The notes: generated from the sequence alone by a model not told the origin. A DNA stretch of 64,000 nucleotides from Candidatus Limnocylindria bacterium (GCA_041486085.1 JBGPKU010000009.1:375-64374); one strand, 5' to 3'. Positions 28,785 through 32,306 are shown, counted from the stretch's first letter. A program made the numbers and translations.

Positions 28785-28997
28785 CTAGCGGTCCGCGTCG
28801 CTGAACAGCACCTCGAAGAGCTCATTGCACCCCGGACACTTCACCGTCGCCGCGTACGGCGGATCCGGCGGGACGTCGAGATGCTCTCGGGTCACGTTGC
28901 GCGGACCGACGTTGGTCGCGCAGAACGGGCACACGACGGCGTAGGCCAGGAATTGATGGCGGTCCACCTTGAGCCGCCGCCGCTGATCCACGCTCAT
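28785..28997 (-). CDS. small zinc-ribbon protein (70 aa, CPFC...CPGC)
   Basis: ATG at 28997 with GGAGG about 9 nt upstream. Two CxxC pairs. The remainder of the listed 252-aa ORF (to 29543) is antisense to the peroxiredoxin and is rejected. Confidence 0.55.
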   Translation of the reverse strand: MSVDQRRRLKVDRHQFLAYAVVCPFCATNVGPRNVTREHLDVPPDPPYAATVKCPGCNELFEVLFSDADR

Positions 28998-29099: not shown

Positions 29100-29606
29100 A
29101 TGGCCGCACCGAAGGGTCGGAACAAGATCGCGACCGAGACGAAGACGCTTCGTGTCGGTGATGTCGCACCCGACTTCACGCTGCGCGCGCACGATGGCAC
29201 CGAGGTCACGCTGTCCGCCCTTCGCGGACGGCGCGTGGTCATCGCGTTCTTCGCGTTCGCGTTCACGAACACCTGAAACAGTGAGGCGCCCGCGCTGAAC
29301 TCGCTGCAGGAGCGGTTCGCGGGCGGCGGTGCCCAGGTCGTGGGCATCTCGTGCGACACGGTCTACACGCTCAAGGACTGGGCCGAACATCTTGGTGGCG
29401 TGAAGTACCCGCTCTGCTCCGACTTCTGGCCTCACGGCCGGGTTTCCCAGGCATACGGCGTCTTCAACGAGGAGATCGGCCGCCCGGAGCGCGCGATCAT
29501 CGTGGTGGACGCGTCGGGGATCGTGCGGTACATCGACGTGCACCAGCTGCGCGAGGTGCCGGACGACGCGGAGATCGCTGCGGAGCTGAAGAAACTGGAG
29601 CCCTAG
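29100..29606 (+). CDS. AhpE-type 1-Cys peroxiredoxin with in-frame TGA (29274-29276) at the peroxidatic position; candidate selenoprotein
   Basis: ATG 29100 and ORF 29340..29606 share the same phase. Read-through gives VGDVAPDFTL...VVIAFFAFAFTNT-U-NSEAPAL...GISCDT...YPLCSDFWPHGRVSQAYGVFNEE...IIVVDASGIVRY. The Prx motif FTxxCxxE has TGA in place of Cys. Confidence 0.65.
29287..29325 (+). promoter_or_regulatory. SECIS-like stem-loop downstream of the in-frame UGA
   Basis: Outer stem CGCCCGCG (29287-29294) pairs with CGCGGGCG (29318-29325). Inner stem UCGCU/AGCGG. Apical loop GCAGG (29306-29310) starts 29 nt after the UGA. Confidence 0.45.
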
Positions 29607-29699
29607 CGAGCTCTTCCCTCCTCATCCGCGCGTACTGCGTACCGCGCGTCTTCGTTGATCCGAGCTCGCAAGCGAGCTCTTCTCTCCTCATCCGCGCGT
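29605..29699. repeat. two copies of a 29-nt direct repeat (28/29 identical), period 66 nt
   Basis: AGCGAGCTCTTC[C/T]CTCCTCATCCGCGCGT at 29605-29633 and 29671-29699. The 37-nt spacer also contains partial copies (CCGCGCGT, CGAGCTCG). Confidence 0.8.
29627..29656 (+). terminator. candidate intrinsic terminator of the peroxiredoxin gene
   Basis: CGCGCGTAC-TGC-GTA(C)CGCGCG, 9 bp with one bulge, followed by TCTTCGTT. Confidence 0.45.
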
Positions 29700-30140
29700 C
29701 GGGATCAGATAGGCCTTCCCGTCGCTCGCGATGGTGAAGGCGACGGCATCACCCTCGCTCACCGGGCCGAGCGTGTCGCCGCTCACCAGGACGTCGGCGC
29801 CGCAGTCGACCACAGCGATCTCGCCGGTCTCCTTCACGACACCCTCGACGCCAGCGCCCGCACCCACGAGGCCACCATTGACGCGGCCGCGCCCGCTGCC
29901 CTTGGTCACGTCCCTCGCGGCGAACGCGATGGCCATCGTCACGCGGTCGCCGATCGACAGGCGCTGCTTGCGCACGGCGCCGGTGGCGTCCTGGCCCCGA
30001 AGATCGAGCCGCGCGGGTCCGTCACCGACGCGCAGCGTGACGACGATGTCGCCGCGCGTTCCGTCGAGCACGACGACCACGCCGCGCGAGGCCTTCTGCC
30101 GCCACTTCTCGATGAACGCGAGCTGCTCGAAGTCCATCAT
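29688..30140 (-). CDS. hypothetical protein (150 aa)
   Basis: Balanced composition and GC-rich third positions on the minus strand. The overlapping + ORFs (29655..30200, 29731..30156) have R/H/A-rich shadow composition. No motif recognised. Confidence 0.5.
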   Translation of the reverse strand: MMDFEQLAFIEKWRQKASRGVVVVLDGTRGDIVVTLRVGDGPARLDLRGQDATGAVRKQRLSIGDRVTMAIAFAARDVTKGSGRGRVNGGLVGAGAGVEGVVKETGEIAVVDCGADVLVSGDTLGPVSEGDAVAFTIASDGKAYLIPTRG

Positions 30141-30160: not shown

Positions 30161-30565
30161 GTGCCGCCGAAGATCACAGGGATCGCGCATGTCGAGCTGA
30201 GCGTGAGCGACCTCGATGCGAGCGTGGCGTGGTATTGCCGCGTGCTCGGCGCCAGAGACGCGTTCCGCACGCGGAGCGACGCGCTGGGGTTCCGCGCCTG
30301 CGCGATCCTCGAGCCCGAGACGCGGACCGTGTTCGCGTTCGCGCAGCACGATGCCATCGAGGGCGGCCCGTTCACGCCGCGGCGCATCGGGCTCGACCAC
30401 CTCTCCTTCGCCGTGGCGGATGGTCCGGCTCTCGAGGCGTGGCGCGAGCACCTCGACGAGCTGGGCATCGACCACGACGCGATCGACGATCAGGGCTTCG
30501 CGCTGGGTCTGAACCTGCGCGATCCGGACGGCATCGCGCTCGAGTTCTACGTCCTTCGGCGCTGA
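30161..30565 (+). CDS. VOC-family (glyoxalase/bleomycin-resistance/dioxygenase) protein
   Basis: IAHVELSVSDLDASVAWY, LDHLSFAV and DPDGIALEF are typical paired beta-alpha-beta-beta-beta modules. Confidence 0.7.
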   Translation: MPPKITGIAHVELSVSDLDASVAWYCRVLGARDAFRTRSDALGFRACAILEPETRTVFAFAQHDAIEGGPFTPRRIGLDHLSFAVADGPALEAWREHLDELGIDHDAIDDQGFALGLNLRDPDGIALEFYVLRR

Positions 30566-31309: not shown

Positions 31310-31460
31310 CGTGCCGACCGCACACCCATTGGCCACAGGCGGGATGAGCTCGCGCACCATGGGCTCTGCCGCGCACGACACGGTCGTCGAGTGATCGCGT
31401 GCGCGGTCCGATCCAATGGGTCGTGGTCCCATCGCGACGGGACTTGAACGGAGGTGCCAC

Positions 31461-32306
31461 ATGGCCGACTACGCTCACCCTGAGGCGCTGGCGGACACCA
31501 ACTGGCTCGCCTCGCACGGGAAGGACAAGAACGTACGCGTCTTCGAGGTCGACGTCGACACGAAGTCGTACGACGAAGGGCACGTCGAAGGCGCGATCGG
31601 GCTCGACTGGCGCAAGGACCTGCAGCAGCGGCCGGTCCGCGATCTGCTCGACAAGCGCGAGCTCGAAGCGCTGCTCTCCAAGTACGGCGTCACGCCCGAG
31701 ACGACGATCGCCATCTACGGCGACAACAACAACTGGTTCGCAGCGTGGTTCTTCTGGCTGCTGAAGTACTACGGTCACAAGGACGCTCGGCTGGTGAACG
31801 GCGGTCGCGCGAAATGGATCGCGGAGGGCAAGCCAATGACGACCGCCATCCCGTGGTTCGACAAGGGCGACTACCGCGCGAAGGGTCCCGATGCCTCCGT
31901 CCGCGCGCTGCGCGATCTCGTGCTGGAGCGCGTGACCGACGGCAGATCCAAGCTGATCGACGTGCGTTCGCCGAAGGAGTACGCGGGCGAGCTGCTCGCT
32001 CCCGAGAACCTACCGCAGGAGGGCGCGCAGCGAGGTGGTCACATCCCCGGCGCGCAGAACGTCCCGTGGGCGACCGCGGTCGCCGAGGATGGCAGCTTCA
32101 AATCGGCCGACGAGCTCCGGTCGATCTACGAGGGCAAGGGACTGTCAAAGGGCACCGAGACGATCGCGTACTGCCGAATCGGCGAAAGAAGCGCGCATAC
32201 CTGGTTCGTGCTCAGCTATCTCCTCGGTCACGAGAAGGTCCGCAATTACGACGGCTCGTGGACCGAGTGGGGCAGCATGATCGGCGTACCCATCGAAAAG
32301 AGCTAG
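31461..32306 (+). CDS. thiosulfate/3-mercaptopyruvate sulfurtransferase (tandem rhodanese)
   Basis: GGAGGTG SD before ATG 31461. Motifs DEGHVEGAI, RSPKEY, GHIPGA, active-site loop YCRIGERS, DGSWTEW. Confidence 0.8.
   Translation: MADYAHPEALADTNWLASHGKDKNVRVFEVDVDTKSYDEGHVEGAIGLDWRKDLQQRPVRDLLDKRELEALLSKYGVTPETTIAIYGDNNNWFAAWFFWLLKYYGHKDARLVNGGRAKWIAEGKPMTTAIPWFDKGDYRAKGPDASVRALRDLVLERVTDGRSKLIDVRSPKEYAGELLAPENLPQEGAQRGGHIPGAQNVPWATAVAEDGSFKSADELRSIYEGKGLSKGTETIAYCRIGERSAHTWFVLSYLLGHEKVRNYDGSWTEWGSMIGVPIEKS

Follow-up and report, generated by a model that had tools for sequence, protein, structure and literature searches.

A probable selenocysteine-containing peroxiredoxin of the AhpE type in Candidatus Limnocylindria, with two conserved RNA hairpins downstream of its in-frame UGA

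In a stretch of 64,000 nucleotides from Candidatus Limnocylindria bacterium (GCA_041486085.1 JBGPKU010000009.1:375-64374), analysed here as a whole and called the window below, positions 29100-29606 of the forward strand very probably encode a selenoprotein. As judged from sequence comparison, the product would be a 168-residue peroxiredoxin (Prx) of the AhpE type carrying selenocysteine (Sec) at residue 59 (U59), decoded from the in-frame UGA codon at 29274-29276. A first-pass annotation of the window had proposed a candidate selenoprotein at this place, and the proposal is strengthened by the invariance of the UGA, by purifying selection on both of its flanks and by the existence of homologues with cysteine at the same position, which form a Cys/Sec pair with it.

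The read-through frame extends from ATG 29100 to TAG 29604-29606, and its 168 codons are uninterrupted except by the TGA. The coordinates given in the first-pass annotation, with the ATG, the TGA and the downstream open reading frame (ORF) in one phase, proved exact, and the start and the frame are kept in orthologues. A mechanical ORF list of the window returns the gene as two pieces, 29100..29276 (58 amino acids) and 29340..29606 (88 amino acids). As had been foreseen, gene finders likewise split the gene at the TGA in all 36 related sequences, and the public annotation of every examined genome shows either a split gene or a fragment labelled "redoxin domain-containing protein". The codon context ACC-UGA-A (29271..29277) is invariant among related sequences: the Thr that precedes the UGA is encoded by ACC in 33 of 33 sequences, whereas the other Thr codons of the gene vary, and the base 3' of the UGA is A in every related sequence.

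Orthologues were scanned with one genome per species, which gave 33 close loci in 32 species-representative metagenome-assembled genomes (MAGs) of Candidatus Limnocylindria or Chloroflexota. All 33 (70-91% protein identity) share the TGA column, and the frame is intact before and after it; four more divergent loci, reached via C-terminal fragments 64-66% identical to the window protein, likewise have TGA. Agreement to this extent is far beyond chance. The first-pass annotation had suggested looking for Cys or Sec codons in this column of orthologues; TGA was found in all 37 related loci, which represent 36 distinct sequences, and never TAA or TAG, while the nearest Cys-type homologues have Cys. 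The loci are syntenic, most of them having a tRNA-Pro(GGG) within a few kb of the gene, and have conserved neighbours, namely a gene of about 150 amino acids on the opposite strand followed by HAD, rhodanese, PCMT and amidohydrolase genes. Both halves of the gene are under purifying selection. Indeed, the pairwise ratio of nonsynonymous to synonymous substitution rates (dN/dS) is 0.26 upstream of the TGA (42 codons) and 0.22 downstream (104 codons), with a mean dS of about 0.7.

These data bear on the idea that in this particular genome the gene has decayed to a pseudogene, or that the TGA stems from faulty sequencing or assembly. No lesion is simpler than one in-frame stop, and the genome is represented by one assembly, but the same TGA occurs in 36 distinct sequences from independent assemblies, made in different studies with different assemblers. 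The first-pass annotation had itself raised the case of a decaying pseudogene; further lesions were looked for in the orthologues and none was found, no orthologue having any other in-frame stop. With purifying selection on both sides at this level of synonymous divergence, such an explanation is highly improbable and effectively refuted.

A collection of 5.8 billion proteins contains 104 homologues of the window protein, among which 69 are C-terminal fragments starting after the TGA and 16 are N-terminal fragments whose last residues are exactly F[TS][NG]T. The other 19 are full-length, all at 62% identity or less, and none of them has a stop in the UGA column. The closest have Cys there (FTGVCQGE and similar), encoded by TGC in the two nearest Cys-type genes. 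A UGA at the column that holds the catalytic Cys of sister lineages is the standard Cys/Sec signature used for finding selenoproteins (PMC13188914).

The fragments match gene-caller annotation, which would suit a split gene making separate polypeptides of about 58 and about 88-110 amino acids, possibly reassembling into a non-catalytic Prx-like fold; candidate internal starts do exist, for example GTG 29340. This is very unlikely, since the interruption coincides in every case with the catalytic residue and is invariably a TGA, and since the stretch of 21 codons from the TGA to GTG 29340 stays in frame and is conserved throughout the orthologues. Moreover, the called starts of the C-terminal fragments vary between genomes, GTG 29340 falls within the loop of the second hairpin described below, and a Prx without its peroxidatic cysteine (CP) has no known function. 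As for a genome-wide reassignment of UGA (genetic codes 4 or 25), nothing beyond the in-frame TGA itself speaks for it and its probability is negligible: it is refuted by stop usage, TGA being the stop of 28 of the 50 likely genes in the window. A scan of the window for in-frame TGA with coding signal on both sides returned this gene and a plain gene junction at 30563 only, and no further candidate, which would also have been an independent sign of Sec use, was found in the window or in the 33 loci, flanks included. Taken together, TGA conservation, selection, stop usage and the homologue data indicate that the UGA is decoded, and exclude pseudogene, assembly error, split gene and reassigned code.

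Some individual loci deserve mention. The nearest Cys-type homologue (L047, protein P0001, on a JGI contig of 1052 bp) has a C-terminal half almost identical in protein to the Sec type (IGRPERAIVVIDAGGVVRYIDVHQLREVPDDEEIAQELAKLE) and an N-terminal half like that of another, CxxxxC-type clade (FTGVCQGELCEIRDD); recombination within the gene, or a chimeric contig, might explain this. One MAG (DASWDY01, SMAG_U2748) holds two Sec-Prx loci, L015 and L016, on different contigs, the two copies being 92.7% identical over 1.26 kb; the bin either mixes two strains or contains a duplicated locus. Two MAGs with records titled 'Candidatus Saccharimonadales bacterium', represented by L018 (DATLEG010000149.1) and L021 (DATJHW010000085.1), have the gene on contigs with Limnocylindria-like synteny and 70-72% GC, which we take to be out of keeping with Saccharimonadia. 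They are likely mislabelled or from a contaminated bin.

If the stop is replaced by Cys, the translation matches Pfam AhpC-TSA (PF00578) over profile positions 1-124 of 124, with an E-value of 4e-35 and 120.8 bits for a cutoff of 26. The best relative of solved structure is Mycobacterium tuberculosis AhpE (Rv2238c; PDB 1XVW, 1XXU), with E=5.6e-31; AhpE chains range from 6e-31 to 9e-30, and the next-best Prx subfamily, a 2-Cys Prx, reaches E=4e-16. As predicted, the ranking of PDB matches places the protein in the AhpE-like branch of peroxiredoxins. No NCBIfam model reaches its cutoff, the PrxU equivalog NF040737 scoring 66.6 bits for a cutoff of 270. In the structure-database alignment the UGA falls on the peroxidatic Cys of AhpE (query aftntCnse, AhpE AFTGICQGE). 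The first-pass annotation had given an alignment with AhpE and had put the UGA on the catalytic Cys column of an AhpE-type Prx; both points were right.

Several active-site residues surround this position. The UGA stands in the CP column of the F-T-x-x-C motif, and three residues ahead of it (F-T-N-T-[UGA]) Thr56 (codon 29265..29267) provides the Thr/Ser of the TxxU motif, a position that is Thr or, in some orthologues, Ser throughout. Arg131 (29490..29492) corresponds to the conserved Prx active-site Arg; its column is invariant in the alignment with Cys-type homologues, and it aligns with the Arg of AhpE ANRG. Cys85 (29352..29354, in G-I-S-C-D) is invariant in all Sec-type orthologues; the nearest Cys-type homologues have it too, whereas AhpE and more distant ones lack it. 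It is a plausible candidate for the resolving residue. In front of the Prx domain, all Sec-type orthologues have in common an N-terminal extension (29100-29150, residues 1-17) of the form (M/V)AAPKGR(N/T)K(I/V)ATET(K)T, which is missing from AhpE and from Cys-type homologues.

Downstream of the UGA, the coding sequence forms two conserved RNA structures. Hairpin 1 (29287..29325, forward strand) is a long imperfect stem-loop that starts 10 nt after the UGA. Its outer stem pairs 29287-29294 (CGCCCGCG) with 29318-29325 (CGCGGGCG), its inner stem pairs 29301-29305 with 29311-29315, and its apical loop GCAGG lies at 29306-29310, 29 nt after the UGA. The structure is conserved, the sequence is not. 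Compared with dinucleotide shuffles, the hairpin has no extra stability (z=-0.74); this is, however, a poor control for a coding sequence of 69% GC. Shuffles among synonymous codons, which hold the protein fixed, give z=-3.2 in the window and a mean of -1.65 over 37 sequences, vs. -0.14, -0.55, and -0.29 for three segments of this gene taken as controls. In the codon alignment, pairing is kept in 75-88% of cells, vs. 33-60% with slid partners, and several pairs show compensatory changes, with both sides altered. A divergent clade builds the hairpin anew from another sequence, GAGCGGUC-AAACC-GACCGCUU, despite a different encoded peptide. RNAalifold, run on the gapless codon alignment, predicted almost nothing because the arms of hairpin 1 pair in different registers across clades; it was replaced by explicit pair counts and per-sequence folds.

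Hairpin 2 (29328..29348, forward strand), with the candidate SelB-binding apex, has in the window an 8-bp stem that starts 51 nt after the UGA; its core (29331-29345) starts at 54 nt and its loop is GGUCG (29336-29340). Four stem pairs and the loop G-G-U are invariant in all 34 aligned sequences, synonymous sites included. The closing pair varies, with G:C in 22 sequences, A:U in 10 and no pairing in the other 2; the divergent loci L043-L046 have the core, GCCCAGGTCGTGGGC, without change. Codons +19 to +22 (GCC/ACC CAG GTC GTG) show almost no synonymous variation, whereas other four-fold codons have an entropy of about 1-1.9 bits. Synonymous shuffles give z=-2.9 in the window and a mean of -1.54. 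Finally, two Cys-type genes encode the same A-Q-V residues with codons GTG CTC, vs. GTC GTG in the Sec forms, and have no hairpin 2.

The consensus of the bacterial selenocysteine insertion sequence (SECIS) element, or bSECIS, comprises a loop of 3-9 nt, a stem of 4-16 bp, a G in the first two loop positions, a distance of 16-37 nt from the UGA and a minimum free energy of at most -7.5 (PMC13188914). It was applied here without bulges, hence more strictly than in bSECISearch. Under these rules, loop, stem and energy of hairpin 2 agree with the consensus in 23 of 34 orthologues, for a background of 12-15% of in-frame positions. Hairpin 1, for its part, has a spacing of 29 nt, within the model. 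We infer that hairpin 2 is the better candidate for binding SelB.

Several observations weigh against the proposed decoding of UGA as Sec. Neither hairpin shows every published bSECIS feature. The first-pass annotation had described hairpin 1 as SECIS-like, with a G opening its loop; the coordinates were exact and the structure is conserved, but the loop G is not (loops GCAGG, CCAGG, CCAGC, CCAAC, and AAACC), and with uninterrupted stems the full set of bSECIS features is found in 3 of 34 orthologues. The loop of hairpin 2 starts 59 nt after the UGA, outside the 16-37 nt of the model, this hairpin is without a bulged U like U17 of fdhF, and its covariation amounts to roughly one evolutionary event. 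Searches of Rfam, at gathering thresholds and at permissive E-values, gave no match. In the protein, the Pro of PxxxTxxC is replaced by Ala in all Sec-type orthologues (Ser in L018; FFAFAFT, FMAFAFS), at a position (column P52) that is Pro in at least 90% of aligned Cys-type homologues. Moreover, tRNA-Sec (ARAGORN, Rfam) and homologues of SelA, SelB, and SelD, the latter searched with regular expressions and with tblastn using E. coli and Miltoncostaea SelD, SelA, and SelB, were found neither in the 64 kb of the window nor in the related loci, which add about 517 kb and bring the total to about 581 kb. Finally, the KEGG Orthology (KO) evidence for sel genes, in the portion of PMC13212565 presented below, is pooled by family and may not cover the window's own Limnocylindria family.

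The absence of sel genes from about 581 kb says little, because these genes need not be linked to selenoprotein genes. In PLSDB, no Chloroflexota replicon has selA or selD. A SelA search of the protein database, which could not be aimed at this lineage, returned only Actinomycetota-like relatives of the seed, and a SelA profile search of a representative library gave 4,189 SelA-like clusters, with a taxon found for one of ten name look-ups (Gemmatimonadota). For genomes of the Limnocylindrales family CSP1-4, with KOs pooled by habitat, the available part of the lists in the source data of a 2026 study on the genomics of Limnocylindria contains K01042 (selA) for freshwater and sediment, K03833 (selB) for freshwater and K01008 (selD) for sediment (PMC13212565). 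This part covers sediment up to before K03798 and does not extend to soil, and absences from it carry no information.

The UGA might also be recoded as something other than Sec. For instance, a tRNA(Cys) resembling tRNA-Sec, with anticodon UCA, might decode it as Cys together with a SelB-like factor, or the downstream structures might stimulate near-cognate read-through with Trp or Cys. One would then expect a normal thiol peroxiredoxin or a read-through protein of low yield. From certain bacteria, tRNAs of the tRNA-Sec type with predicted Cys charging have been described. No Sec machinery was found in the DNA searched, the RNA geometry is non-canonical, and conserved hairpins are compatible with structure-stimulated read-through as well. 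Yet a UGA in place of a catalytic Cys, with Cys in sister lineages, is the classical signature of Sec (PMC13188914), the apex of hairpin 2 matches the SelB-recognition motif, and selA, selB, and selD KOs are reported in the class in the part of the lists just described. Trp at the catalytic position would end peroxidase activity, which fits poorly with a gene under purifying selection. As for Cys, a single mutation would give TGC or TGT, which would be read with full efficiency, but neither is found in any of the 36 related sequences. Recoding as Cys or Trp is thus unlikely, and Sec remains by far the preferred identity of residue 59.

For Sec insertion, the following course of events may be proposed. 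With the ribosome at the UGA, SelB carrying Sec-tRNA(Sec) would be recruited by the RNA structure lying just downstream in the coding sequence, and Sec would be inserted instead of termination. In the most likely arrangement, hairpin 2 would be the SelB-binding element, through its invariant A-GGUC(G)-U apex, and hairpin 1 would act as a folded spacer. Indeed, hairpin 1 fills 39 of the 59 nt that separate the UGA from the loop of hairpin 2, and once it is folded the unpaired path from the UGA to GGUC is 10 + 10 = 20 nt, close to the 18 nt of fdhF. We tentatively put this forward as a bipartite SECIS, in which an invariant apex at 59 nt is brought to an effective unpaired distance of about 20 nt by a sequence-variable spacer hairpin of 39 nt; as a complete model it is doubtful. 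The enzyme would reduce peroxides by way of a selenenic acid formed on U59, which the invariant Cys85 might then resolve.

Other arrangements of the RNA have been considered. Hairpin 1 might alternatively be a non-canonical SECIS, with some other role for hairpin 2. A stem closing both hairpins into a three-way junction (alignment columns 16-21 with 84-89) finds no support, 66% of its cells being paired, which cannot be told apart from controls. ACCUG (29271-29275) may alternatively pair with CAGGU (29334-29338), which would account for the invariant ACC codon. All positions of this possible pairing are invariant, and the invariant UGGG arm is left unexplained.

The surroundings of the gene were also inspected. 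A 28-nt direct repeat, GCGAGCTCTTC(C/T)CTCCTCATCCGCGCGT, is present in two copies (29606-29633 and 29672-29699), the first taking in the final base of the Prx stop codon and its partner starting 66 nt later. Between the copies, and overlapping the start of the second, lies an inverted repeat, GAGCTCGC-AA-GCGAGCTC (about 29656-29673). This repeat element stands between the Prx gene and a convergent gene, and chance alone would not be expected to yield one. All 48 loci fetched lack it, which makes it specific to this genome; it may be a terminator or a small repeat element. The convergent gene (29688-30140, reverse strand) is an ORF of 150 amino acids with no Pfam match; a gene of 146-149 amino acids at the same position beside the Prx gene in the divergent loci makes it a conserved neighbour. 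On the other side, about 100 nt from the Prx gene and divergently transcribed, 28785-28997 (reverse strand) encodes a 70-amino-acid protein with two CxxC pairs (CPFC...CPGC), which has a sub-threshold zinc-ribbon-like Pfam match only; L045 and L046 have a gene of 67 amino acids at the same position and in the same orientation. About 1.8 kb downstream, a two-domain rhodanese (sulfurtransferase) gene (31416-32306) keeps its position in related loci. Rhodaneses can also handle selenium; any link between this one and the Prx is conjectural.

Limnocylindria (Ellin6529, CSP1-4, QHBO01, P2-11E) are among the most abundant uncultured Chloroflexota of soil and freshwater. Because the gene is split or labelled as a fragment, their antioxidant repertoire and selenium dependence are invisible in annotations. 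A selenoprotein here would add an AhpE-like branch to the Sec-peroxiredoxins and would imply a selenium requirement in a lineage for which a literature search gave no description of Sec use. With 36 diverged sequences, the locus offers a well-sampled natural case of a putative SECIS departing from the consensus model. If the bipartite arrangement is true, it would extend the bSECIS model, could explain part of the roughly 13% of bacterial selenoprotein genes reported without canonical SECIS, and would show that a soil lineage which is abundant and largely aerobic relies on selenium in its defence against peroxides.

The predicted protein can be compared with AhpE itself. The two are collinear over residues 14-156 and have in common the motifs APDFTLR, AFT..C..E, SDFWPHG, and SQAYGVFNE. 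However, AhpE is a 1-Cys Prx with Cys at CP, whereas the window protein has UGA, and probably Sec, at this position, with Ala in place of Pro in its active-site motif. It also has the invariant Cys85, where AhpE has Val, and its N-terminal extension of about 15 residues (APKGR(N/T)KIATET).

At the RNA level, the reference is the SECIS of E. coli fdhF, in which G23, U24, and U17 are conserved and U17 and G23 are the SelB-binding sites (PMC8659212). In the real E. coli sequence used for the comparison, the apex is GCA-GGUC-UGC and the loop lies 18 nt after the UGA. Hairpin 2 resembles it by its closing A:U, its GGUC loop and the hexamer CAGGUC, and hairpin 1 starts 10 nt after the UGA, vs. 11 nt for the upper stem of fdhF. 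In contrast, the loop of hairpin 2 is at 59 and not 18 nt from the UGA, a structured hairpin of 39 nt lies in between, and a U17-like bulge is missing. In BSepDB, 12.6% of 57,630 entries have no canonical SECIS (PMC13326102). Like those genes, the present one combines an in-frame UGA, here presumed to encode Sec, with strong comparative support, and differs by its specific conserved two-hairpin architecture. It may belong to this group and may possibly be catalogued there already.

Finally, the closest known kind of protein is the Sec-Prx family (PF00578, TxxU), which has been verified experimentally, first in Eubacterium acidaminophilum in 2001, and was known from 12 genomes by 2006; some Chloroflexota are rich in selenoproteins (PMC13188914, PMC1794560, PMC13326102). 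The first-pass annotation, which had such proteins in a few anaerobes only, overstated their rarity, since this bacterial family has been verified since 2001 and occurs in many genomes. PrxU of Eubacterium (Peptoclostridium) acidaminophilum is likewise a thiol peroxidase of AhpC/TSA fold with Sec for the peroxidatic Cys in T-x-x-U; in this family the SECIS lies inside the coding sequence and Cys-type homologues exist in other lineages (PMC13188914, PMC1794560), as would be the case here. The window protein differs from PrxU in that it falls below the NF040737 cutoff, groups with the AhpE-like branch, has Ala or Ser for the Pro of PxxxTxxU, and comes from an uncultured, GC-rich and largely soil-dwelling Limnocylindria lineage. 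A literature search gave no report linking Limnocylindria/Ellin6529, or an AhpE-type Prx, with selenocysteine. Thus, while the kind of protein, a Sec-Prx, is already known, the AhpE-like branch, the host lineage and the geometry of the putative SECIS seem to be new.

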